Assembly: GCA_049322475.1 (NCBI GenBank)
Contig: JBMOQZ010000316.1
Location: 918 to 64,917 of the forward strand
Reading direction: 5' to 3'
Length of the DNA stretch: 64,000 nt
DNA from: Myxococcota bacterium
Lineage (GTDB): Bacteria; Myxococcota_A; UBA796; SXON01
A program made the translations under genes and the position numbers. The number at the start of each line of letters is the position of its first letter. Position 1 is the stretch's first letter. Below are positions 1,798 to 60,579 of this stretch, one piece after another. The notes under the pieces are model-generated. The model did no database searches and was not told where the DNA came from. It worked only from the letters and a program-made list of their open reading frames with translations.

Positions 1798-3375
1798 ATG
1801 CCCCTGATCACCCTGCTGATGGCCTGCCCCCCCTCGCCGCCCGAGCCCACCGCGTACGACGACGGATACGCGGCCGGGTACGCGAAGGCCGAGGAGGACT
1901 TCGAGGCGCGGATCGCCGCGCTGGAGGCGAGCGACTCGACCCAGGACGAGGCGATCGCCGCGCTGGAGGCGGACGTGGCCGGCATCTCGACCGACGGCTT
2001 CGCCACGAGCGAGGACCTCGCCGCCCTCGAGTCGCGGGTAGCCGCGACCGAACAGGGCCTCCTCGGCGAGACGTCGGATCGGGAGGCCGCGGACGGCGAG
2101 CTCGACGCCCGGGTCACGGACCTCGAGGCCGCGGTGGGCACGCTGGAGGACGACGTCGCCTCCATCCTCGTGGACTACGCCACCGAAGCCTGGGTGACGG
2201 CCACCTACGCCACGCTCACGGAGCTGGCGACGGCGGAGGCCACGCTCGACGCCCTCGACGACGACATCGCCGCCGTGGCCGCCGACCTCGGCACCGTCAC
2301 CGCCGACCTCGACGCCCTCGAGCTCGCCGCGGACGGGGTCGACGACCTGCTCGCCTACGTGGAGGTCGACACCGCCGCGGACGCGGTGAAGTTCGTCGGC
2401 GCCAACGTGTTCGTCCAGAGCGGGGCCGGGTCGACCGAGGCCGTGATCAACGGGCTCGGGAACCTGATCCTCGGCTACAACGAGGACACCTCGGGGTTCG
2501 CGCGGGACGGCTCCCACAACCTCGTGGTGGGCGCCGACCTCGGCTGGCACGGCTACGGCGCCATCGTCAGCGGCGTGCACAACTACGTCGCCTCCAACTA
2601 CGGCGCCGCGATCGGCGGGGCCTACAACGAGGCCGGCGAGCAGTACGCGGTGGCGGTCGGTGGCACCGGGAACACGGCCAGCGGCCAGTTCGCGGTCGCG
2701 GCGGGCGGGGCGGCCAACGAGGCCCAGGGATACGCCACGCTGGTCGCCGGCGGGTACGACAACTACGCGGGCTCGACCACGATCTCCACGGAGTACGCGG
2801 TCGCCCTGGGCGGGCAGGGCAACGTCGTGGCCGACGGGACCGCGCTCGTCGCCGGCGGCTACCAGAACACCGTCGAGAACGACTACGCCTCCGCGTTCGG
2901 CGGCAGCGGCAACTCCGTCACCGGCGGGTACGCGGCCGCCGTGGGCGGCTACGGGAACAGCGTGACCGGCGACTACGCGGGAGCGTTCAGCGGGCATGCG
3001 AACACCGCCTCCGGCCTCTACTCCTCCGTCACCGGCGGCGACGCGAACAGCGCGACCTATGTCGCGGCGTCGGTAACTGGCGGCAAGCAGAACACGGCCG
3101 GCTGGGAGTACGCGACCGTGACGGGCGGCCAGTACAACACCGCCGGCGACAGCACCTCCGGCGGCTACGCCTCGGCGATCGTCGGCGGCCAGGGCAACTA
3201 CACGCAGGCGGCGCACGGCACTGTGGTGGGTGGCTACGCCAACTACGCACAGTCGTCCCACGGCGCGATCCTGGGGGGCTACGGCACCACCACCGAGCAC
3301 GCCTACGCGACGATTCTCGGCGGATATGCAAGCCGTACCGGTGCGAACTACGACATCGGTCCCGACAGCTGGTGA
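1798..3375 (+). CDS. Lipoprotein with N-terminal coiled-coil-like region and 16 C-terminal 15-residue GG-x-x-N repeats (YadA-head / Hep_Hag-like beta-roll)
   Basis: ATG 1798 lies in the frame of track ORF 1645..3375. There is a lipobox (MPLITLLMAC) and heptad-like AALEA/DLEA segments. Residues encoded by about 2611..3345 repeat as GGxxNxAxGxxAxVx. Confidence 0.75.
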   Translation: MPLITLLMACPPSPPEPTAYDDGYAAGYAKAEEDFEARIAALEASDSTQDEAIAALEADVAGISTDGFATSEDLAALESRVAATEQGLLGETSDREAADGELDARVTDLEAAVGTLEDDVASILVDYATEAWVTATYATLTELATAEATLDALDDDIAAVAADLGTVTADLDALELAADGVDDLLAYVEVDTAADAVKFVGANVFVQSGAGSTEAVINGLGNLILGYNEDTSGFARDGSHNLVVGADLGWHGYGAIVSGVHNYVASNYGAAIGGAYNEAGEQYAVAVGGTGNTASGQFAVAAGGAANEAQGYATLVAGGYDNYAGSTTISTEYAVALGGQGNVVADGTALVAGGYQNTVENDYASAFGGSGNSVTGGYAAAVGGYGNSVTGDYAGAFSGHANTASGLYSSVTGGDANSATYVAASVTGGKQNTAGWEYATVTGGQYNTAGDSTSGGYASAIVGGQGNYTQAAHGTVVGGYANYAQSSHGAILGGYGTTTEHAYATILGGYASRTGANYDIGPDSW

Positions 3376-3417
3376 CACACGAGATGTGTCGAAACACACC
3401 TGATGTGTCGACACATC
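3373..3417. terminator. Cluster of GACACA/TGTGTC hairpins, including a perfect 16-bp palindrome GATGTGTCGACACATC (3402..3417), between convergent genes
   Basis: Read directly: GACACA(3374-79)/TGTGTC(3385-90) and the palindrome at 3402-3417. It is an AT-richer island wedged exactly between two stop codons. There is no U-tract, so terminator function is inferred only from position. Confidence 0.4.
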
Positions 3418-4164
3418 TCACCCGTGTATCAGCCCCCACCCCAGCTTCATCAACATCCCCGTCACCACCACCACGAACACGCTCCGCACGAAGCCCGCGC
3501 CCTTCGCGAGCGCGAGCCGCGTCCCGATCTGCGACCCGGCCACGTTGCACACCGCCATCGGCAACGCGAGCTCCCAGCGGATGACGCCCGCCGCCGCGAA
3601 CGCCACGATCGCCGCGAGGTTCGTCGCGACGTTCACGAGCTTCGCCGACGCGGAGGCGCCGAGGAAGTCGAGGCCGCACAACGCGACGAAGCCGAAGAGC
3701 AGGAAGCTCCCGGTGCCCGGGCCGAAGAAGCCGTCGTAGATCCCGAGCCCGGCGCCCATCGCCGCCGCGCCCGCCGGGCCGATCCGCGGCGCCGCGGGCT
3801 GCCCGAAGTCCTTCTTCGCGAGCGTGTAGGCGAGCACCGCCGCGAGGAGCACCACCACGACCGGGCGTAGCCACTCCGTGGGGAGCTGCGTCGCGAGGCG
3901 CGCGCCCCCGAACGAGCCCACGAACGCCGCGACGGCCGCGGGCCCGGCCGCGCGCCAGGGGATCGCCACGCTGCCCGCGTACTTCCACAAGGCCGCCGCC
4001 GTCCCCGCGACGCTCGCCACCTTGTTGGTCCCGAGCATCGTCGGGACCGCGGCCTCCGGGTACAACACCAGCAGGGCCGGCAGCTGCACGAGCCCGCCGC
4101 CCCCGGCGACGGCGTCGACGAACCCCGCGAGGAAGGCGGCGGCGCAGGCGAGGAGGACGAGCAT
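3418..4164 (-). CDS. TauE/SafE family sulfite/anion exporter (DUF81) membrane protein
   Basis: 248-aa polytopic membrane protein. It has the family-typical GFVDAVAGGGGL N-terminus and internal GIYDGFFGPGTGSF motif. ATG at 4164. Confidence 0.9.
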   Translation of the reverse strand: MLVLLACAAAFLAGFVDAVAGGGGLVQLPALLVLYPEAAVPTMLGTNKVASVAGTAAALWKYAGSVAIPWRAAGPAAVAAFVGSFGGARLATQLPTEWLRPVVVVLLAAVLAYTLAKKDFGQPAAPRIGPAGAAAMGAGLGIYDGFFGPGTGSFLLFGFVALCGLDFLGASASAKLVNVATNLAAIVAFAAAGVIRWELALPMAVCNVAGSQIGTRLALAKGAGFVRSVFVVVVTGMLMKLGWGLIHG

Positions 4165-8677: not shown

Positions 8678-9253
8678 ATGCCCCCGACTCCCTGGCTGGA
8701 AGCGCGTGTGCCCGACACCTCCGCCTACGTCGCGACGTTCGACGCCCGAGCGCACCGGTCTCCCGCCGAGGGCGACCTCACCGGGGGGACCTTCGCGTTC
8801 GGGAGCCCGATCGTCGTGGAGGAGGTCGGCCCGTCCGTGACGGTCGGCGCCCGGGCGGTGCGCTGGTACCGCGTGCGCGGGCCGGGGATCGGCGGCTGGG
8901 TCCGCGGAGACCAGCTGACGGACGTGGCCCTCTCGAACACGGAGGAGGGGTGCGTGTCGTGCGAGCCCAACCTCGACGACGACGACAGCAGCGAGACGAT
9001 CACGCTCGCCTGGCGCGACGACCGCCACCTCGTCGTCCGCCTGAGAGAGTCCTCGCGCCGGGCCACCCGAGAGACGCTGGACCTCGGCGCATTCCCGGCG
9101 ACCCTCGATCGCGCCGCCGCCTCCGTCGTGGAGGAAGCCGGCGCCGAGCTCGTCCGCGTCGACGTCACGGGCCCGGGCCCCGGCGCGGTGACGATCTGGG
9201 CGAGCTGGGTCGACGACACGCTGAAGGAGGCGAAGCGCGACGCGGGACCGTAG
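8678..9253 (+). CDS. Hypothetical protein (SH3b-like N-terminal segment)
   Basis: ATG 8678 lies in the frame of track ORF 6989..9253. The composition is protein-like ([20 protein letters not shown]). No family was recognised. Confidence 0.55.
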
Positions 9254-9258
9254 GAGGC

Positions 9259-9592
9259 GGTCACCGGCGAGGGACCTGCCGAGCAGGGGGGCCCTCGGCG
9301 ACCGCTGGGCGGTCACGGACGGGGGGCCTGCCGAGCAGGGGGGCCCTCCATGACCGCGGGGCGGTCACGGACGGTGGACCTGCCGAGCAGGGGTGCCCTC
9401 GGCGACCGCTGGGCGGTCATGGAGGAGGGACCTGCCGAGCAGGGGGGCCCTCGGCGACCGCTGGGCGATCACGGACGGGGGGCCTGCCGAGCAGGGGTGC
9501 CTTCGGCGACCGCTGGGCGGTCATGGAGGGGGGACCTGCCGAGCAGGGGGGCCCTCGGCGACCGCTGGGCGGTCATGGAGGGGGGACCTGCC
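9259..9592. repeat. Tandem array, 6.4 copies of a 52-bp double-hairpin unit (family REP-52)
   Basis: The anchor CCTGCC recurs at 9275, 9327, 9379, 9431, 9483, 9535 and 9587, an exact 52-nt period. Each unit holds GACCGC-TGG-GCGGTC and CCTGC-CGA-GCAGG hairpins. The array fills the convergent intergenic gap 9254..9624. Confidence 0.95.
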
Positions 9593-9624
9593 TATCTGGA
9601 GGACTGCGGGGCGGCCCCCCGGCT

Positions 9625-10644: not shown

Positions 10645-12998
10645 CGCCCCCGCCACAAATACACCGCGCCCTCGCCGGGGGCGCCGACGAGCACGTCGTC
10701 GAAGCCGTCGCCGTCGGTGTCGCCGGCGTTGTCCAGCCCGATGCCGGCGTACTGCCTCTCCGCCTCGCCGAGGAGCTTCAGGTCCGCGGCCGACAGGTCG
10801 ATGGAGCCCGAGAAGGGGCCGTAGAGCAGGTACGCCGCGCCCGCGGAGTACCCGGCGTCGTCGTCGCCCGTCGCGCCGATGAGCACGTCGGCGAACCCGT
10901 CGGCGTCGACGTCGCCCCCGCCGGCGACCTCCCAGCCCGCGTAGTCGTTCTCGGCCTCGCCGAGGAGCGTGGCGTCGGCGCTCGCGTCGGTCGCGTCGCC
11001 GGTCACCGGGCCGCGCCAGAGGTGGCCGCCCCCCACGGGCAACCCGCCGACGTACAGGGAGGGGGCGCCGGAGACGACGTCGTCGTAGCCGTCGCCGTCC
11101 ACGTCGCCCGCGCCGGCCACGGCGACCCCCGCCAGCGTCCAGTCCGTGGAGCCCTCTCGCGACGCGTCCGCCGCCGAGAGCGACATCGTCCCGCTCACCG
11201 GGCCGTACACGAACCAGACCACGCCGCGGTACGTGCCGCCGCGCGCCGCGAACGGCCCGCCGATCGCGAGGTCGTCGAGGCCGTCGCCGTCGAGGTCGCC
11301 CGCGAAGGCGACGTCCCACCCGGCGGAGTCTTCGCTCCCCTCGCCCGTGAACGACGCGGAGGCGGTCGTGGCCGAGCCGCCCGACGAGACCGGCCCGAGG
11401 AACAGGTACGCCGTGCCCGGGTTCTCGCTGACGCCTTCCGGCGCGCCCACGAGCAGGTCGGCCTGGCCGTCGCCGTCCACGTCGCCGCCGCCGTCCAGCG
11501 CCTCCCCGAACTGGGCGCCGTCGGCCGCGCCGGTCAGGACCACGTCGGCGTCCGAGAGGTCGGTCGTGCCGCGGCGCGAGCCGTCGAGGAGGTAGACGGC
11601 GCCGGCGTCGGTGCCCGCGCGGTCGTTGTAGTGGGCGCCGATCCCGAGGTCCCGCACGCCGTCGCCGTCGAGGTCGCCGACGCCGGCGACCGCCTCGCCC
11701 GCCTCGTCGTTCTCGTCCTCGCCGAGGAAGGCGGCGTCCGCGCCGGAGAGCGAGCCCGACGCCAACGGCCCGAGCACGAGGTAGGCCTTGCCGCCGTCCG
11801 ACGCGTCGCGGCAGCCGATCAACACGTCGTCGAAGCCGTCGCCGTCGAGGTCGCCCACGCTCGCCACCTTGTAGCCGGCCCAGTCTCCCGTGCTCCCGGT
11901 GAGCGCCGCGTCGGCGGCGGAGACCGACACCACACACGCGATCGCGGCGGAGGCGTCGCCGTCGTCGCAGTCGTCGGAGTTGTCGACGAGGCCGGCCGGG
12001 GCGTCGCACGCGGACGCGGCGAGCGTGGAGCCGTAGCCGTCGGCGTCGGCGTCGACGTACCAGGAGTCGAGGTCGGTGGCGGAGGCGTCGTCGTCGTCGG
12101 CGAGGCCGTCGCAGTCCTCGTCGGTGTCGGCGTCGTCGCACACCTCCGCGGCGGCGGGCGAGACGGACGCGGTGGTGTCGTCGCAGTCGTCCGCGTTGGC
12201 GACGTGGCCGGCGGGCGCGTCGCAGTCCGTGGTCGCCTCGCCGGCCCCGTAGCCGTCGCCGTCGCCGTCGAGCCACCAGTCGCTCCCGACGCCCTCGTCG
12301 ACGGAGCCGTCGCAGTCCTCGTCGACGTCGTCGCAGGTCTCCACCCCGGCGGGCGACACCCGCGCGAGCGTGTCGTCGCAGTCGTCCGCGTTGGCGACGG
12401 AGCCGTCGGGCGCGTCGCAGGCCGTGGTCGCCTCGCCGGCCCCGTAGCCGTCGCCGTCGCCGTCGACCCACCAGTCGCTCCCGACACCCTCGTCGACGAA
12501 GCCGTCGCAGTCCTCGTCGACGTCGTCGCAGGTCTCCTGCGCGCCGGGAAAGACGCGGGGATCGGCGTCGTCGCAGTCGTCGCCGCCCCACGCCAACGCG
12601 TCGGCGCCGTCGCCGTCACCGTCGGGCGCTACCGCCGCGAATGCGACGGTCGCGGTGGCGGTGCCGCCAAACGTGTCGGTGACGACGAGGGTGACGGTCC
12701 AGTCGCCGGGGGCGAGCCCGTCGAGGGAGAAGGCGGCGAGCCCGGTGGCGTCCGGCGCGGCGGGGGCGCCGGAGAGGTCCATGTCGCCGGTCCACGCGAG
12801 GGCCAGCGCGTCGGCGGCGTCCTCGGCGTCGGCGACGCGCGCGCTCACGAGCACGGGCGCCTCCGCCGCGACCTCCGCCGCGGGCGCCTCGAACGCGGCC
12901 GACGGCGGCGCGTTCGCGGGGTCGGTCCCGGTGTCGGGCACGTCGGCGGAGTCGCCGAACTTCACGCTGTGCTGGCAGGCGACGAGGAGCGGGAGCAT
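10641..12998 (-). CDS. FG-GAP (integrin-alpha-like) repeat lipoprotein with MopE-type metal-binding modules
   Basis: ATG 12998 (MLPLLVAC lipobox) lies within track ORF 10641..13292. There are three DCDD...CDDxDxDCDG modules, then at least 7 repeats of GD(L/V)DGDGxDD(L/V)xxGAP. Confidence 0.85.
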   Translation of the reverse strand: MLPLLVACQHSVKFGDSADVPDTGTDPANAPPSAAFEAPAAEVAAEAPVLVSARVADAEDAADALALAWTGDMDLSGAPAAPDATGLAAFSLDGLAPGDWTVTLVVTDTFGGTATATVAFAAVAPDGDGDGADALAWGGDDCDDADPRVFPGAQETCDDVDEDCDGFVDEGVGSDWWVDGDGDGYGAGEATTACDAPDGSVANADDCDDTLARVSPAGVETCDDVDEDCDGSVDEGVGSDWWLDGDGDGYGAGEATTDCDAPAGHVANADDCDDTTASVSPAAAEVCDDADTDEDCDGLADDDDASATDLDSWYVDADADGYGSTLAASACDAPAGLVDNSDDCDDGDASAAIACVVSVSAADAALTGSTGDWAGYKVASVGDLDGDGFDDVLIGCRDASDGGKAYLVLGPLASGSLSGADAAFLGEDENDEAGEAVAGVGDLDGDGVRDLGIGAHYNDRAGTDAGAVYLLDGSRRGTTDLSDADVVLTGAADGAQFGEALDGGGDVDGDGQADLLVGAPEGVSENPGTAYLFLGPVSSGGSATTASASFTGEGSEDSAGWDVAFAGDLDGDGLDDLAIGGPFAARGGTYRGVVWFVYGPVSGTMSLSAADASREGSTDWTLAGVAVAGAGDVDGDGYDDVVSGAPSLYVGGLPVGGGHLWRGPVTGDATDASADATLLGEAENDYAGWEVAGGGDVDADGFADVLIGATGDDDAGYSAGAAYLLYGPFSGSIDLSAADLKLLGEAERQYAGIGLDNAGDTDGDGFDDVLVGAPGEGAVYLWRGR

Positions 12999-22153: not shown

Positions 22154-22300
22154 GGCCGAGCGTACTGCATGCGGCGTGCCCGGGGGGGAGGCCGGGGGGC
22201 GGAGGGGGAAATCTACGGTTGGTGGAGGGGCGGTTGCCGAAGAGAGAGCGCTCGCCCGGTGGAGGGCCGTCCCGCCGAGCAGGCGGCCGTGACCGTGGGG

Positions 22301-22786
22301 TCAGCGCGACAGGCGCCGGCGGAGGGCGCCGAGGTCGGTCCGCGCGGTGACGTAGCAGGGCTGGAACCCGAGCGCGCGCCAGGTGTCCTCGCCGAGCGCG
22401 TTGCCGGGGACATATTGCAGCACGACCCGCGAGACCTGCTGGGCCGCGAAGAACGCGGTGAGCTCGCCGAGCAGCCCGCGGGCGACGCCGCGCCGCCGGT
22501 GCGCGGCCTCGACCCACACCTCGTCGACGTTCCCGCAGCGGACGTGCTCGAGGCCGACGTGGTCCTCGACGCGGCCGGCCGTCATGCCCACGAGCTCGCC
22601 CGCGGCCTCGGCGACGAAGACGCGGGCGCGCGCGTGGTCGAGCATGGCGGCGTAGCGGTGCCGCAGCTCCGCGATGCTGGCGCGGACCAGCCCGGGGTCG
22701 ACCGCGGCGTGGTGCGCGCGGTTGGCCATCCCGAAGACCACGAGGCGCTGCAGGTCGGCGGGGGTGGCAGGGCGGACGAGGTACAC
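22301..22786 (-). CDS. GNAT-family N-acetyltransferase
   Basis: GTG 22786 gives 161 aa within track ORF 22301..23122. The acetyl-CoA motif is VWVEAAHRRRGVARGLL. Confidence 0.8.
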   Translation of the reverse strand: MYLVRPATPADLQRLVVFGMANRAHHAAVDPGLVRASIAELRHRYAAMLDHARARVFVAEAAGELVGMTAGRVEDHVGLEHVRCGNVDEVWVEAAHRRRGVARGLLGELTAFFAAQQVSRVVLQYVPGNALGEDTWRALGFQPCYVTARTDLGALRRRLSR

Positions 22787-22825: not shown

Positions 22826-22968
22826 GGCGGCGGAGGCCACCCCTGCTCCCCTCGCGGCGAGGGCGCGGCGGTCATGGAGGCCCCCCTGCCCGGCAGGTCC
22901 CCCGTCGGCGACCGCGGGGCGGTCCTGGAGGCGACCCCTGCCCGGAAGGTCAGAGGCCCGTGACCGCG
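22826..22968. repeat. Tandem array, about 2.7 copies of the 51-52-bp REP-52 unit
   Basis: GGTCATGGAGG starts at 22870 and GGTCCTGGAGG at 22921, with a partial copy before them. It has the same GACCGC/GCGGTC and CCTGCC/GGCAGG hairpins as 9259..9592. It abuts the 3' end of the RAYT-like gene. Confidence 0.85.
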
Positions 22969-22973
22969 AGCCT

Positions 22974-23795
22974 CTACTTGAACGGCCGCGTCGGCGACGC
23001 GCGCTCGCCGAGGGAGAGGCGGTGCCCCATCCGCAGCGCGATCGCGCGCTCGAGGTCCGGGTCCGGCGAGCCGGCTCGCAAGCGCCGCACGGATCGCTCG
23101 GAGAGAGACAGCGCATCGGCAATCACCGCGGGCCTCAGCTCCGCGGCGGCGACCCGCACGGCCGCGGCCCTCGCGCGCGCGGCGCGGTCCGAGGCGTCCA
23201 GCGCGGCGAGACCCACGGCCCCGGCCGCGGCGTCGGCGAGCCACTCGCCGCGCACGGCGGGCTCGAGCCCGGCGACCTCGAGGAGCCCGAGCAGCAGCTC
23301 GCGGCTCACACGCCGGACCTTGGACCGAACTCGCTGGATGAAACCCTCCGGCCCGAGACGGAGGCCGAGCAGCTCCTGGATGGACGACGCGTCGTGCAGC
23401 GGATCGAGGTCGACACGGTGCTTCTTCTCGTTCCCCAACACGTACGAGAAGGTACGGTCCACGTGCGACTGCTTCCACATCGCCTCGAAATGGCACGGGA
23501 AGAAGCCCGCCGAGATCTCGAAGGACTGCGCGAGCGACGATCCGAGCGCCTGCGCGAAGGCGGACGCCTCCGCGCGCGTGCAGGCGTTCACCGTGTGCAG
23601 GTGGTCGTCCGAGGCGCGGAAGCCGAACAGCTGGAAGCGCGCGCCGATGCGATGGACGGTCTCCGCGAGCATGCGCTGCGCGCGCGAGTCCGGCGCCAGG
23701 ATGCGCGAGTCGCGCGCCCGAAACGTCAGGTGCCAGCCGATTGGCTCGTCGTCGTCCACGGCGGCGAACGGTAGGCACGGTCGCGACAGCGGCAA
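22974..23795 (-). CDS. Y1/HUH (IS200/RAYT-like) tyrosine transposase homologue with a C-terminal HTH-containing extension
   Basis: Motifs: WHLTFRAR strand, HUH motif DDHLHTV, then CHFEAMW...FSYVLGNEKKH (Y-x3-N-x2-K-H as in RAYTs). The C-terminal 130 aa contain ADALSLSERSVRRLR. The track start 23795 is TTG; GTG 23759 is an alternative. The gene looks lower in GC than its neighbours. Confidence 0.7.
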   Translation of the reverse strand: MPLSRPCLPFAAVDDDEPIGWHLTFRARDSRILAPDSRAQRMLAETVHRIGARFQLFGFRASDDHLHTVNACTRAEASAFAQALGSSLAQSFEISAGFFPCHFEAMWKQSHVDRTFSYVLGNEKKHRVDLDPLHDASSIQELLGLRLGPEGFIQRVRSKVRRVSRELLLGLLEVAGLEPAVRGEWLADAAAGAVGLAALDASDRAARARAAAVRVAAAELRPAVIADALSLSERSVRRLRAGSPDPDLERAIALRMGHRLSLGERASPTRPFK

Positions 23796-23837
23796 GAGGC
23801 AAACTCGCGCTCACCCGGGGCACCCTTCGCCGAAGGT

Positions 23838-24010
23838 GTCCTCGTGGCGACCGCCACGCGGTCATGGAGGCCACCCCTGTTCGGAAGGTCCCCCGTCGGC
23901 GACCGCCGAGCGGTCACGGAGGCCACCCCTGCCGGGCAGGTCCCCCGTCGGCGACCGCCGAGCGGTCACGGAGGCCACCCCTGCTCGGCAGGTCCCCCGT
24001 CGGCGACCGG
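23838..24010. repeat. Tandem array, about 3.4 copies of the 52-bp REP-52 unit
   Basis: Units start at 23860, 23912 and 23964 (an exact 52-nt period), with a partial copy before them. It lies between the RAYT-like gene start and metH. Confidence 0.9.
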
Positions 24011-39182: not shown

Positions 39183-41231
39183 AAGGAAGGGCGCGCCGCC
39201 GCCCGTCGAGCAGCCGCCGGTCCAGCCCTCGGGCGCCTCGGCGACGCCGTCGCAGTCCACGTCGCGGCCGTCGACGTCCTCGCCGGCGCCGGGGAAGGCG
39301 TGGGCGTCGCCGTCGTCGCAGTCGCCGCCCGCCTCGGTCCAGCCGTCGCCGTCGTCGTCGTACACCTTCGTCTCGTCGTCGGCGAGGCCGTCGCAGTCCT
39401 GGTCGAGCCCGTCGGCGGACTCGGGGGCGCCGGGGAAGGTGGCGGGCGCGGCGTCGTCGCAGTCGCCGGCGTCCTCGGCGAAGCCGTCGCCGTCGTCGTC
39501 GAAGGCGGTCGTGCCGTCGTCGGCCACGCCGTCGCAGTCGTCGTCGCGCCCGTCGGCGACCTCCGGCGCGCCCGGGAACCGCGCCGCGGAGAGGTCGTCG
39601 CAGTCGCCGGCGTGCTCGGTCCAGCCGTCGTGGTCGTCGTCGAAGGCGGTGGTGCCCTCGTCGGCGAGGCCGTCGCAGTCCTCGTCGCGGCGGTCGGGGC
39701 GCTCGTCGGCGCCGGGGAAGACGTCGCGATCGCCGTCGTCGCAGTCGCCCTCGAGCTCGGTCCAGCCGTCGGTGTCGTCGTCGAAGGCGTCGGTGCCCTC
39801 GTCCACGTGCCCGTCGCAGTCCTCGTCCACGCCGTCGGCGACCTCCACCGCGAAGGGGAAGCGGCGCGGCGCCACGTCGTCGCAGTCGCCGGCGCGCTCG
39901 GTCCAGCCGTCGCCGTCGTCGTCGTAGGCCTCGGTGCCCTCGTCGACGAGGCCGTCGCAGTCGTCGTCGAGGGCGTCCGGCCGCTCGAGCGCGCCGGGGA
40001 AGCGCCGGGGCGCGGCGTCGTCGCAGTCGCCCGCCACCTCGGCGAAGCCGTCGGTGTCGTCGTCGAAGAGCCGGGTGCCCTCGTCGGCGATCCCGTCGCA
40101 GTCGTCGTCGGCGCCGTTCTCGTGCTCGGGGGCGCGCGGGAAGGTGAGCGCGTCGGCGTCGTCGCAGTCGCCGCGGCGCTCGGACCAGCCGTCGTGGTCG
40201 TCGTCGTACACCGGCGTGCCCTCGTCGACGACGAAGTCGCAGTCGTTGTCCACCGCGTCGGGGAGCTCGACCGCGCCGGGGTGGAGGCGGGGGTCGCGGT
40301 CCTCGCAGTCGCCGTCGCAGGTCCGGTACCCGTCGGCGTCGAGGTCGTAGCGCTCGTCCACGTCGCCGTCGCAGTCGTTGTCGACGTCGTCGCAGAGCTC
40401 GGTCGCGCGCGGGTGGATGGCCGGGTCCTCGTCGTCGCAGTCGCCCTCGCGGACCGTCCAGCCGTCGCCGTCGAGGTCGCCGCAGTGCTTCGCGTCGCTC
40501 CCGCGGTCGAAGAGCACGGCGAGGTGGTTGGCGACGACGCGCGACGAGCCGTCGGAGGGGTCGTTCACGACGCCCTCGCCCTTCACCCACATCGTCGTGG
40601 ACCCGCCGCCGTCGAGGTTCATCGCGTCGCTGGCGCCGAGGTCGGCGAGCAGGTCCTTCAGGTCGTCGACGGTGGCCCCGATGCTGCTGGACGAGCGCCC
40701 GTCGACCACGACCATGTAGAGGATCGTGCCGTCCTCGGACAGGCCGACGGCGGTGCGCGGGTGGAGCTCGTCCCAGGTGTAGGAGGTCTCCGCGCCGTCC
40801 TTCAGCAGGGTGGGGTGGCCGCTCACCGCGTCGTCGATCCAGTCCTCGTCGGCATGCTCGACCACCGTGCCCGCGGAGAACAGCTTGGCGGCGCCCTCGC
40901 CGAAGGCGATCGTCCCGTTGTAGGTGTCGTCCGCGGTGTCGGACCACGCCCGGCCGTCGCCGATCGACAGGCCGCTCGTCGAGTAGTCGGTGTACGAGAA
41001 GAAGTCGCCGTTGATCGCCGCGATGGCGTCGACCTCCTCGGCGAACGACTGCACCGTCTGCTGGCGCTCGCCGCTCGCGGTCGCGCGGATCGAGATGCCC
41101 GGCGCGCAGAGGTCGACCTCGAGCACGTGGACACGCAGCGGATCGGAGGTCGTCCGGTACAGGTAGCGGACGCCCGGGAAGGGCTCGGACCAGGAGTCCC
41201 CGGCGAGGGCGGTGGCGACGAGCGCGAGCAC
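39138..41231 (-). CDS. Phosphodiester glycosidase (NAGPA/DUF2233)-domain protein with about 10 MopE-type modules and a MYXO-CTERM-like sorting tail
   Basis: The N-terminal domain has INGDFF...PRTAVG...AMNLDGGGST. It is followed by about 10 repeats of DGDGW/F...GDCDD...FPGAxE..DGxDxDCDGxxDEG. The C-terminus is GCSTGGGAPFLSGILLAAFATRRRR. GTG start at 41231. Confidence 0.85.
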   Translation of the reverse strand: MLALVATALAGDSWSEPFPGVRYLYRTTSDPLRVHVLEVDLCAPGISIRATASGERQQTVQSFAEEVDAIAAINGDFFSYTDYSTSGLSIGDGRAWSDTADDTYNGTIAFGEGAAKLFSAGTVVEHADEDWIDDAVSGHPTLLKDGAETSYTWDELHPRTAVGLSEDGTILYMVVVDGRSSSSIGATVDDLKDLLADLGASDAMNLDGGGSTTMWVKGEGVVNDPSDGSSRVVANHLAVLFDRGSDAKHCGDLDGDGWTVREGDCDDEDPAIHPRATELCDDVDNDCDGDVDERYDLDADGYRTCDGDCEDRDPRLHPGAVELPDAVDNDCDFVVDEGTPVYDDDHDGWSERRGDCDDADALTFPRAPEHENGADDDCDGIADEGTRLFDDDTDGFAEVAGDCDDAAPRRFPGALERPDALDDDCDGLVDEGTEAYDDDGDGWTERAGDCDDVAPRRFPFAVEVADGVDEDCDGHVDEGTDAFDDDTDGWTELEGDCDDGDRDVFPGADERPDRRDEDCDGLADEGTTAFDDDHDGWTEHAGDCDDLSAARFPGAPEVADGRDDDCDGVADDGTTAFDDDGDGFAEDAGDCDDAAPATFPGAPESADGLDQDCDGLADDETKVYDDDGDGWTEAGGDCDDGDAHAFPGAGEDVDGRDVDCDGVAEAPEGWTGGCSTGGGAPFLSGILLAAFATRRRR

Positions 41232-59025: not shown

Positions 59026-60579
59026 CTACCAGCCGCCGCCGAGGAACAGGTAGGCGGCGCCGCCGAGCGACACGCCGGTCTCCCGCAGGGGCGCGCCCAC
59101 GATCACGTCGAGCCGCCCGTCGGCGTCGACGTCGCCCACGTCGAAGGCCCACCCGAAGCCCTCCAGCGCGCCCTCGGGCGAGAGGCGGTCGGCGACGTCG
59201 CCGGCGTAGACGGTGCCGTCCAGCGGGCCGTAGGCGATCCACACGCCGCCCCGCTCCTCGCCCTCCTGCAGGGAGGGCTCGCCGGCGAGCACGTCGATCT
59301 CGCCGTCGCCGTCGAAGTCGAGCGCGCGCGCGGGCGCGATCACGTTGAGCGGCGCGTGGTTCACGAGGCGGGCCTCGGCCTGCGACGGCAGCCGCGTCCC
59401 GGTGCCGGCGCCGGTGTACAGGCGCACGGACGCCCCGAGGGTGCCGTCGACGTAGTCGAGGCCGGAGACCAGCACGTCGGCGAGCCCGTCGTCGTCGACG
59501 TCGCCGGCGCTCCCCACGGCGGCGCCGGTGCCGTCGATGGAGCCGTCGTCGAAGGTGTTGCCGGCGAAGACCACGTCGGCCTCGTCGAGCGTCTGCAGCC
59601 CCGCCGCGCCGCCGCGGAAGAGCCACGCGGTCGAGTGGTTCCAGGAGCCGACCACGAGGTCGTCGAGGCCGTCGCCGTCGGTGTCGCCGGCTGAGGCGGG
59701 CAGGAGCGTCGCGTTGCCGCCGAAGCCCTCGCTCACGACCACGCCGGAGAGGATGTCGCTCTCGTCGAAGGTGCCCTCCCAGGAGGCGGGGAGGACGGCG
59801 ACGCCGCCGAACTCGCCGAAGCCGTCGTCGGCGATCGCGAGCTCGACGACGCCGTCGCCGTCGAGGTCGCCGAGGGTCCGTACCCGCTCGGCGAGGGCCA
59901 GCGGGGGCTGGGCCCAGTCCTCGTACACGAGGCGCGCGTCGTCGAGCGAGTCGACGCCCGACAGCGGGGCGGGGAGCACGCTGACGAGGCCCGCGCCGTC
60001 GCCCACCACGAGCTCGGTGCCGCCGTCCGCGTCGAGCGTCGCGAGCGCGAGGCCGGGGTGGCGGCCCTCGCCGGCCTCGAGGCCGCCGGAGGGGGACAGC
60101 GGCGTGGTCTCGCTCGGGACCCCCGACTCGACGTAGACGCGGCCGGCCCCGTCGCGCCCGCTCGGGTACTCGGGCGCGCCGAGCGCGTACGCGGGGCTCC
60201 CGGCGCCGTCGGCGTCCGGCACGAACGCCACGGCGAAGCCGACGTACCCGGCCTCGCGCGAGCCGCGCCAGGCGGGGTCGCCGACGACGTCGTAGTCGAG
60301 GCCGTCGCAGGCGGGCGCGGCGGGGTCGCAGTCGGCGTCGACCGTGTCGCCGCAGGTGTCCGTGGCGCTCGGGTTCACGTCGGCGCGCGCGTCGTCGCAG
60401 TCGCCGCCCACCGAGACGTAGCCCTCGCCGGCCTCGCAGGCGGCGTTGAGCTCGTCGCCGAAGCCGTCGCCGTCGTCGTCGGGGAAGAACGAGGGGGTTT
60501 CGCACGCAGGCGCGGTGGTGTCGTCGCCGTCGCCGGCCGGGTCGCCGAGGTCGCACGCGAGGAGGGGGAGGAGGAGCAT
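59026..60579 (-). CDS. FG-GAP repeat lipoprotein with an N-terminal MopE-type module
   Basis: Lipobox MLLLPLLAC, then DDDGDGFG...GGDCDD, then repeats of GD(L/T/V)DGDG(L/V).D(L/V). Confidence 0.8.
   Translation of the reverse strand: MLLLPLLACDLGDPAGDGDDTTAPACETPSFFPDDDGDGFGDELNAACEAGEGYVSVGGDCDDARADVNPSATDTCGDTVDADCDPAAPACDGLDYDVVGDPAWRGSREAGYVGFAVAFVPDADGAGSPAYALGAPEYPSGRDGAGRVYVESGVPSETTPLSPSGGLEAGEGRHPGLALATLDADGGTELVVGDGAGLVSVLPAPLSGVDSLDDARLVYEDWAQPPLALAERVRTLGDLDGDGVVELAIADDGFGEFGGVAVLPASWEGTFDESDILSGVVVSEGFGGNATLLPASAGDTDGDGLDDLVVGSWNHSTAWLFRGGAAGLQTLDEADVVFAGNTFDDGSIDGTGAAVGSAGDVDDDGLADVLVSGLDYVDGTLGASVRLYTGAGTGTRLPSQAEARLVNHAPLNVIAPARALDFDGDGEIDVLAGEPSLQEGEERGGVWIAYGPLDGTVYAGDVADRLSPEGALEGFGWAFDVGDVDADGRLDVIVGAPLRETGVSLGGAAYLFLGGGW

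Follow-up and report, generated by a model that had tools for sequence, protein, structure and literature searches.

Introduction

RAYT-type single-strand DNA transposases spread small palindromic repeats in bacteria. The main cases in which a domesticated transposase and a population of short repeats have remained partners over long times, by vertical inheritance, are RAYTs with their REPs and TIRYTs with their TIRs, and the known diversity of both is drawn from proteins that are detectable by hidden Markov models (HMMs) in cultured genomes. Here, we describe a locus in a 64,000-nt stretch of DNA from a Myxococcota bacterium (GenBank assembly GCA_049322475.1, contig JBMOQZ010000316.1, positions 918 to 64,917 of the forward strand; hereafter the window), in which a gene for a predicted Y1/HUH protein stands between two arrays of a 52-bp unit with two hairpins, HP1 and HP2. 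The predicted fold, conserved catalytic residues, adjacency of gene and arrays, paralogue-specific units and stem covariation form the basis on which we read this pair as a REPtron/TIRtron-like system underlain by an undescribed TnpA-Y1 subclass.

In TnpA-REP, the structural elements follow the order β1-αA-β2-β3(HuH)-αC-β4-αD(Tyr) (PMC6006769), and the class-2 TnpA-Y1 signature consists of Y-x3-N-P and a conserved W[EQ] before β4 (PMC6006769, Table 1). A C-terminal tail resembling HTH_23, HTH_28 or Bac_DnaA_C is typical of TnpA-Y1 subclass 2.1, the TIRYTs (PMC6006769), while clustered or tandem flank repeats are known from BIMEs and TIRtrons (PMC3733652).

Results

Predicted fold and catalytic motifs of the protein

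The gene and its domains are located as follows.

22974..23759, minus strand: coding sequence of the predicted HUH/Y1 plus helix-turn-helix (HTH) protein, 261 aa, GTG start at 23759, stop codon 22974-22976 (list of open reading frames (ORFs), NCBI entry P0001, N-termini of homologues)
23385..23759, minus strand: predicted N-terminal Y1/HUH catalytic domain, aa 1 to ~125 (AlphaFold2 model and Foldseek)
23595..23603, minus strand: HUH motif H53-L-H55, reverse complement CAC CTG CAC (family alignment, model, RayT alignment)
23418..23444, minus strand: Tyr motif Y106-V-L-G-N110-E-K-K-H114 (family alignment, RayT alignment)
22977..23384, minus strand: predicted all-helical C-terminal region, aa 126-261 (helices in the AlphaFold2 model)
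23076-23180, minus strand: probable HTH, aa 194-228 (sub-threshold HTH_23 match)

A first-pass annotation of the same DNA had described a RAYT-like product of 273 aa starting at 23795 and had quoted from it WHLTFRAR, DDHLHTV, CHFEAMW...FSYVLGNEKKH and ADALSLSERSVRRLR. The ORF and all of these segments are present, while the TTG at 23795 is probably too far upstream. GTG at 23759, 12 codons downstream, is the likely start because homologue N-termini and the 100% identical NCBI 'hypothetical protein' P0001, which is encoded on a 75.6-kb contig of a Myxococcota metagenome-assembled genome (MAG), begin there.

Structure prediction with AlphaFold2 (pLDDT 91.9, pTM 0.89), by which the annotation had wanted its HUH proposal checked, yielded the topology β1-α-β2-β3(HUH)-α-β4-α(Tyr), with strands (E) and helices (H) at E8-15, H25-40, E44-50, E53-58, H62-79, E86-94 and H97-108. 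H53-L-H55 lies on β3 of the model and Y106 on the helix after β4. This order of elements is that of TnpA-REP, and by prediction the protein has the Y1 HUH fold. The best Foldseek matches in the PDB, at probability 1.0, were IS608 TnpA (2a6o, E 4.9e-3), E. coli RAYT (4er8, E 6.7e-3, TM-score by target 0.55, root-mean-square deviation 3.1 Å over 116 columns), ISDra2 TnpA and IS200 transposases; matches to Rep/NS1 proteins in a viral structure library were weak.

Conservation was assessed in a family alignment of 129 sequences with a mean column identity of 31%, in which H53, H55 and H114 do not vary and conservation of Y106 and H99 is 90% or higher. The family consensus at the Tyr motif is Y-x-L-R-Q-x3-H-G, or more generally Y-x3-Q/N-x3-H, with N instead of Q in the window protein and in proteins closely related to it. 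Alignments to E. coli RayT (sequence from NC_000913) by HMM and hhalign are weak (E 0.02-0.5); they give the motif register, and hhalign was used solely for that purpose. HxH falls on HxH (H59-M-H61), CHFEAM on RFWEHA and YVLGNEKKH under YIYINPVKH, which places H53/H55 and Y106 of the window protein in register with H59/H61 and Y115 of RayT. The HMM alignment and the hhalign alignment of the full family (A2) span β1 to the Tyr helix; that of 17 sequences (A1) starts only shortly before the HUH strand and likewise runs to the Tyr helix.

Profile searches against PF01797 and RAYT models, likewise proposed in the first-pass annotation, found no match: the window protein was hit by neither PF01797 nor NF047646 at E<=10, none of 17 family members matched PF01797, and the best NF047646 score of any family member was 12.5 bits, compared with a cutoff of 80 and with 179 bits for the E. 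coli RayT control. Little can be concluded from the Pfam miss by itself, since Pfam-A misses E. coli RayT too. For the C-terminal half, HTH_23 (Pfam) was matched below its gathering score (E 0.002, 18 bits, cutoff 24.6) and was seen in 11 of the 17 members; a PDB profile search gave weak matches to Xre/PbsX-type HTHs (E ~0.3-1) and PDB sequence searches only marginal HTH matches. The protein is predicted to be transposase-like and of the Y1/HUH fold, with conserved HUH and Tyr motifs and a C-terminal half that ends in a probable, weak HTH.

The 52-bp arrays in the window

Three arrays and one doubtful relic of the unit were located.

23821..24010, plus strand: upstream array, ~3.5 units of 52 bp (Tandem Repeats Finder (TRF) 23846-24009, period 52, 3.2 copies, 91% matches)
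22826..22968, plus strand: downstream array, ~2.5 units, more degenerate (TRF 22847-22968, period 51-52, ~2 copies, 78-83% matches)
9247..9601, plus strand: third array, ~6.5 units (TRF 9256-9592, period 52, 6.5 copies, 88% matches)
22259..22303, no strand assigned: possible degenerate relic of one unit, not secure

Array boundaries were read by eye in register and are wider than the TRF calls. The unit can be written as [GACCGC-nnn-GCGGTC]-12 nt-[CCTGC-nnn-GCAGG]-12 nt, with the centres of HP1 and HP2 exactly 26 nt apart, and sequence variation within the arrays is mostly in the loops. The HUH gene and metH start divergently, and the upstream array occupies the gap between them, ~60 nt from the start of the HUH gene, whose promoter region it overlaps; the downstream array has the same orientation and ends with ...GACCGC, 5 nt before the stop codon of the HUH gene. 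The third array lies 13.4 kb from the gene region between two convergent ORFs of the mechanical list, with no family gene alongside.

TRF thus recovers all three 51-52-bp arrays that had been reported in the first-pass annotation, and module counts are far above chance: the HP2 module CCCCTGCNNGGCAGGTCCCC (<=3 mismatches) has 11 matches in the window against 0.43 expected, and the HP1 module GACCGCNNNGCGGTC (<=1 mismatch) 15 against 3.6. Every match to the HP2 module and every exact match to the HP1 module is inside the three arrays; the five one-mismatch HP1 matches elsewhere are about the chance number. A solo copy that had been suspected near 22269..22295 did not hold up, its local alignment score of 30 being the 99th percentile of 400 random windows (background maximum 32).

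With the gene-flanking arrays as reference, the HP2 module of the array at 9247-9601 is turned round with respect to the HP1 module, together with its proximal half-linkers, and the HP1 flanks of this array occur in both orientations (CTCGGC...ATGGAG and CTCCAT...ACGGAC). Therefore, the two 26-nt modules behave as separable elements, and this mosaic of module orientations recalls BIMEs. Arrays often begin or end within or at HP1 (22968, 24009 and 9247 in the window; L007:3930, L010:4942 and L012:3900 in related loci), and all three window arrays end directly after ...GACCGC. Such ends in HP1 could mark a point of cleavage and joining or a preferred target.

Three concatenated units folded into messy long-range pairings because the unit is quasi-palindromic, and in some loci palindromes that overlap as alternatives disturbed a simple search for stems. 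Rfam had no match anywhere in the window. A search of JGI metagenome contigs for the unit pattern GCAGGTCCCCCGTCNNNGACCGC gave four isolated matches without flanking unit sequence, arrays or homologue, three of them in GC-rich sequence, and these were judged to be chance hits.

Pairing of gene and arrays across the family

An exhaustive profile search retrieved 1153 representative clusters (50% identity) at E<=1e-3 and 504 at E<=1e-30, with nearly all members 250-280 aa long and matching end to end. All are hypothetical or unnamed, none carrying a name or a Pfam domain, and a full-text literature search found no description of this protein family. Among GTDB species representatives, 33 loci were found, all in MAGs and most labelled Myxococcota, Deltaproteobacteria or Polyangiaceae; there were no homologues among 72,556 plasmids and 50,697 phage records. 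The family is therefore large, unannotated, mostly from Myxococcota-like MAGs and not detected by current HMMs. Several MAGs contain two to three paralogues that are mutually 36-68% identical; the exception is L008/L009, two contigs of one MAG that encode 100% identical proteins and may be assembly redundancy. Copy number is low, and the divergent paralogues have their own repeat types. Many contigs break directly beside family genes.

TRF was run on all 34 loci, an array being counted if it had a period of 45-150 bp and lay within 450 bp of the gene. Tandem arrays occur beside the gene in 20 of the 34 loci and on 24 of the 61 usable sides. Array density is 0.91 per kb near the gene vs. 0.032 per kb more than 1 kb away, a ~28-fold difference (Poisson P ~1e-26, the loci not being fully independent). 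The periods beside family genes fall at 51-53 bp (12 arrays, including the two gene-flanking arrays of the window) and 62-64 bp (7 arrays). These values correspond to roughly five and six turns of B-DNA, while unit sequences are otherwise unrelated between the groups (L006-L037 and the window); the clustering could reflect helical phasing or shared ancestry of two unit classes.

Units follow the similarity of the proteins. Close relatives (50-62% identity) have 51-53-bp two-hairpin units and distant relatives (31-40% identity) mostly 62-64-bp units with nested hairpins, the unit sequences being almost wholly different between the two. The paralogues L006 and L007 of one genome have different units, and L006 and L012, which are 81% identical and come from different MAGs, share a nearly identical one. 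In the MAG of the window, the paralogue P0002 (L001) is followed, 12 nt past its stop codon, by GGGGGAC-ACGTGC-ccg-GCACGT-GGG, a related module with a different stem, after which the contig ends.

Covariation of the stems was tested on nine units from seven loci. Stem positions pair in 85.7% of the cells compared with 29-43% in slid controls, and changes on both sides were found in 7 of 14 pairs, e.g., GACCGC/GCGGTC to GGCCGC/GCGGCC and CCTGC/GCAGG to CCTTT/AAAGG. The covariation score of 0.284 (0.130 in shuffles) was reached by none of 500 shuffles. Among the unpaired positions, the only conserved motif is GGTCCCC(C), which lies 3' of HP2. A link to 'CGTC-tagged' REPs, for which CGTC before HP1 in the window unit had been considered, was dropped, since CGTC is not conserved in the related loci.

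On both sides of the gene the arrays are in direct orientation, which is what a strand-specific single-stranded DNA (ssDNA) enzyme would need. The sense strand of the gene is the G-rich array strand in the window MAG and the C-rich array strand in L006, L010, L011, L012 and L022. As gene-relative orientation differs between loci, gene and arrays do not form one rigid block.

A few loci deserve separate mention. In L004/L011:3289-3541, P0007 is preceded by a 62-bp long-hairpin array (GGTCACAACTCG...CGAGTTGTGGCC) and followed by a 53-bp two-hairpin array, so that two unit types flank one gene; a similar GTCACAAC...GTTGTGAC stem is also present in L015 and L020. At L001:2502-4989, P0002 abuts a pair of genes for a DNA cytosine methylase and an MvaI/BcnI-type restriction endonuclease, and the contig breaks 34 bp past the P0002 stop, inside the hairpin module. 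On the JGI contigs L045 (9264-10900) and L046 (190-1826), a gene for a GIY-YIG_2 nuclease domain directly precedes the family member P0014 on the same strand; downstream of P0014 there is only one non-tandem two-hairpin unit, and a different 47-bp array lies 1 kb upstream.

Genomic context of the locus

The window is a high-GC (~0.7) chromosomal stretch of the Myxococcota MAG. The HUH gene is flanked by ordinary chromosomal genes, namely those for a GNAT acetyltransferase, the B12-dependent methionine synthase MetH and a bacterial α2-macroglobulin, and neither the ORF list nor identification of the neighbouring genes revealed a tnpB-like ORF beside it. The first-pass annotation had described the gene as less GC-rich than its neighbours. 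This applies to the 5' half only (0.685-0.70), and even these values are inside the local range of 0.665-0.79; the gene is compositionally not distinct from its neighbours, and the argument fails.

An orthologous empty site could not be defined via MetH because its nearest relatives are only 79-82% identical and because each has an ArsR-methyltransferase gene upstream in place of the GNAT/HUH arrangement. One of these loci (L050:2780-4060, JAUXTN010000243.1, MetH 82% identical to that of the window) has, upstream of its ArsR-methyltransferase and metH genes, a genuine PF01797 Y1_Tnp plus HTH_23 gene on the minus strand (2946-3860, 304 aa). Inverted repeats of 29-33 nt, GGAGGGGTCAGACCCTGCAGTTTGACACC, stand on either side of this gene and contain the TIRYT motif GGGGWSAS; TIRs of the GGGGTCAG type are present as three copies in a 58-bp tandem array on one side and as two copies 70 bp apart on the other.

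Long tandem repeats in coding sequence (141-bp x 7.6 and 195-bp x 2.1) occur at 39238-40314 and 12126-12581 (also 10660-12630 and 59070-60480). Together with many GCCGTCGCCGTC-type repeats they are located inside very large minus-strand ORFs, which by codon reading encode Asp/Gly-rich, calcium-binding-like repeat proteins, and they have no relation to the 52-bp arrays.

Discussion

Relationship to described systems

With RAYT/TnpA-REP proteins and REPtrons (E. coli RayT 4er8; PMC6006769), the window system shares a predicted Y1/HUH fold in which β3 carries HUH and the next helix Tyr, a low-copy chromosomal gene with its own short palindromic repeats within a few hundred bp, divergent paralogues each with its own repeat type, and a repeat that also occurs away from the gene, between convergent genes. 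As in REPtrons, where cognate palindromic repeats are found within ~1 kb of the gene, the gene-flanking arrays of the window are close by, at a distance of 5 nt from the stop codon on one side and ~60 nt from the start codon on the other. On the other hand, the family lacks a match to NF047646 or PF01797 and carries an extra C-terminal domain of ~135 aa. Instead of the class-2 Y-x3-N-P, the window protein has YVLGNEKKH and the family Y-x3-(Q/N)-x3-H, without Pro, and the conserved W is replaced by F/L. While RAYT REPs have GT[AG]G at the 5' foot of the hairpin and occur as singlets or inverted doublets, neither hairpin of the window units has GTAG or GTGG at its 5' foot, whichever strand is read, and the units form strictly periodic head-to-tail arrays of a two-hairpin unit. 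By these sequence features (Y-x3-NP, W[EQ], GT[AG]G-footed REP, NF047646), the protein is not a canonical RAYT.

TIRYTs and TIRtrons (subclass 2.1; Di Nocera et al. 2013, PMC3733652) resemble the window system in combining a Y1 core with a C-terminal tail in ~240-300 aa, this tail being HTH_23-like in TIRYTs and probably so in the window protein, in their prevalence in delta-proteobacteria-type lineages and in having flank repeats that can be clustered or double-palindromic. Their flank repeats are, however, inverted, whereas the window arrays are in direct orientation on both sides. With regard to the TIR consensus GGGGWSAS, the window unit's GGGGGAC matches the first six positions only, GGGGAC covering 6 of 8 positions. 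The TIRYT motif N-H-[VYF]-H contrasts with D/T-H-L-H in the window family, and PF01797 detects the TIRYT-like protein of L050 at 31 bits but not the window protein. Judged by inverted flank repeats, full GGGGWSAS, N-H-x-H and PF01797, assignment to the TIRYTs fails as well.

The TnpA proteins of IS200/IS605 elements (IS608 and ISDra2) and of subclass 1.2 are a third group for comparison; they include the best structural matches and likewise have hairpin-bearing flanks on the same strand. The Y-x3-Q with downstream His of the wider family recalls class 1, subclass 1.2 having Y-x3-Q-x2-HH. IS200/IS605 elements occur in several near-identical copies per genome, with distinct subterminal hairpins at left and right and often with tnpB; the window family is neither multicopy nor near-identical, has no tnpB, has arrays instead of distinct ends and is ~110 aa longer. 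The Tyr motif Y-x3-Q/N-x3-H is nearer to class 1 and subclass 1.2, while in its length and its probable HTH tail the protein is like subclass 2.1. BIME-2 clusters of E. coli are tandem composite units as well, with two different palindromic modules, fixed linkers and a relative module orientation that can differ between clusters; they differ from the window arrays in sequence and size, and BIME REPs carry GTAG and alternate in orientation, unlike the strict 52-bp period and the 13-15 nt hairpins found here.

In function and architecture, the window system is closest to RAYT/REPtrons and TIRYT/TIRtrons (PMC6006769, PMC3733652). From the first-pass annotation, the predicted fold and the HUH and Tyr motifs of a RAYT-like Y1/HUH protein are retained, whereas the protein is not a RAYT by any defining sequence criterion. 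In the same way, the locus is no REPtron with a canonical RAYT, but the proposal stands insofar as gene and arrays are paired and appear to work like a REPtron. 'REPtron-like' is a fair functional reading because this pairing is conserved across diverged homologues. Among three features that had been called unusual, the C-terminal HTH tail has a precedent in subclass 2.1 (PMC6006769), and tandem flank repeats have precedents in TIRtrons (PMC3733652) and in the 58-bp array of L050. What seems to be new is a protein family invisible to current models, strictly periodic head-to-tail two-hairpin arrays in direct orientation on both sides, and the clustering of periods at 52 and 63 bp.

A resident enzyme and its own repeat

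We consider it likely that the protein is a Y1 HUH nuclease/transposase of the IS200/IS605-RAYT superfamily with a helical domain ending in a probable HTH, a low-copy chromosomal resident that co-evolves with its own 52-bp two-hairpin repeat in a REPtron/TIRtron-like manner. The enzyme probably processes this structured repeat. Cleavage and mobility, the gain, loss, inversion and relocation of units and the role of the HTH are what we infer from the observations. The arrays would become single-stranded, e.g., on the lagging-strand template, and their hairpins would fold. The HUH domain would then bind a hairpin and cleave nearby via Y106, with a metal held by H53, H55 and N/Q110, and rejoining would add, delete, invert or relocate units. 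The HTH tail may tether the enzyme to the duplex array, or it may serve autoregulation.

Several observations weigh against this interpretation. No significant match to any Y1 family was obtained with Pfam, NCBIfam, PHROGs, PADLOC or phmmer/hmmsearch against PDB sequences, and hhalign to E. coli RayT, as a single sequence or as a 28-sequence profile, gave E 0.02-0.14 and a probability of ~2% or less. Foldseek E-values are modest (5e-3 to 1e-1), and the TM-score normalised by the query is only ~0.3 because half of the protein is another domain. Arrays are missing from 14 of the 34 loci, though some of these have truncated flanks or a single unit (e.g., L045), and in some others the contig ends inside a unit. 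Away from the gene, the unit forms one extra array in 64 kb, with no secure singletons in the window, and no extra arrays were found within +/-10 kb of two homologues. The array orientation relative to the gene in the window MAG is opposite to that in five related loci. Finally, a dimeric protein binding double-stranded DNA would keep palindromes with 'compensatory' changes equally well.

A more far-reaching version of the enzymatic interpretation is possible, although we regard it as rather doubtful. According to it, the proteins would constitute a fourth, so far unseen class of TnpA-Y1 enzymes whose substrate is a minimal two-hairpin element of 52 nt (or ~63 nt), about five or six helical turns in length, excised as ssDNA and re-inserted beside its own copy because the end of the element resembles its own target, with the HTH tail reading the phased duplex array. 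If true, strictly phased head-to-tail arrays would result, arrays beginning and ending inside HP1 would be explained, and what persists as a unit would be the array and not the dispersed singlet.

Alternative explanations

An autonomous IS200/IS605-type insertion sequence, with the arrays as left and right ends and the array-gene-array block transposing as a whole, seems unlikely. Direct orientation of the arrays on both sides is like that of IS200/IS605 ends, the Y-x3-Q motif of the wider family is class-1-like, L008 and L009 in one MAG encode 100% identical proteins and many contigs break right by the gene. Nevertheless, other paralogues within a genome are only 36-68% identical, a tnpB partner is missing and both flanks consist of one and the same unit in arrays that vary in length, in place of a distinct left and a distinct right end. 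Moreover, an array without gene is present at 9247-9601, and the gene of the window MAG is inverted relative to the arrays when compared with the five other loci.

We assign a similarly low likelihood to the possibility that the arrays are iteron- or operator-like duplex sites for the C-terminal HTH, phased by helical turns and of regulatory or architectural function, with the HUH domain not acting on the repeats. Periods of 51-53 and 62-64 bp, i.e., ~5 and 6 helical turns, keep duplex phasing live; HTH dimers typically have dyad-symmetric sites, the promoter region of the gene is overlapped by the upstream array and HTH_23/Xre-like matches exist, weak as they are. Yet, at ~31% mean column identity HUH and H114 do not vary and Tyr106 reaches at least 90% conservation, a pattern that argues for retained catalysis. 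Arrays are also present downstream of the gene and in a distant gap between convergent genes, and the G·T pairs of some stems (L011) are more in keeping with a hairpin of single-stranded DNA than with a site in duplex DNA.

Less probable still is chance or indirect adjacency, in which generic, terminator- or REP-like intergenic repeats are kept by replication slippage or another enzyme and the gene tends to land there. One window array has no gene alongside and 14 of the 34 loci have no array; against this stand the 28-fold enrichment of arrays beside the gene, units that are paralogue-specific and track protein similarity, and persistence of the same pattern down to 31-40% protein identity despite quite different unit sequences. 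That an integrated plasmid or phage left behind its rolling-circle replication initiator (Rep) and origin iterons is very improbable, for although HUH Rep proteins also act beside hairpins and iterons, the best folds are Y1 transposases with no Reps among the PDB rows returned and weak viral Rep/NS1 matches, homologues are absent from the plasmid and phage records searched, PHROG or PADLOC matches were not obtained and the neighbours are chromosomal housekeeping genes.

Implications

By predicted fold, the 1153 clusters (50% identity) make up a large Y1/HUH branch that is invisible to current models, and on the favoured REPtron/TIRtron-like interpretation the partner DNA of such enzymes can be organised as strictly periodic two-hairpin arrays. 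The family offers a defined target for a new Pfam/NCBIfam model, and the arrays offer a compact substrate for studying hairpin recognition by Y1 enzymes and whether such enzymes build tandem arrays. For the Myxococcota, the partnership also offers an explanation for the recurrent contig breaks beside family genes in their MAGs.

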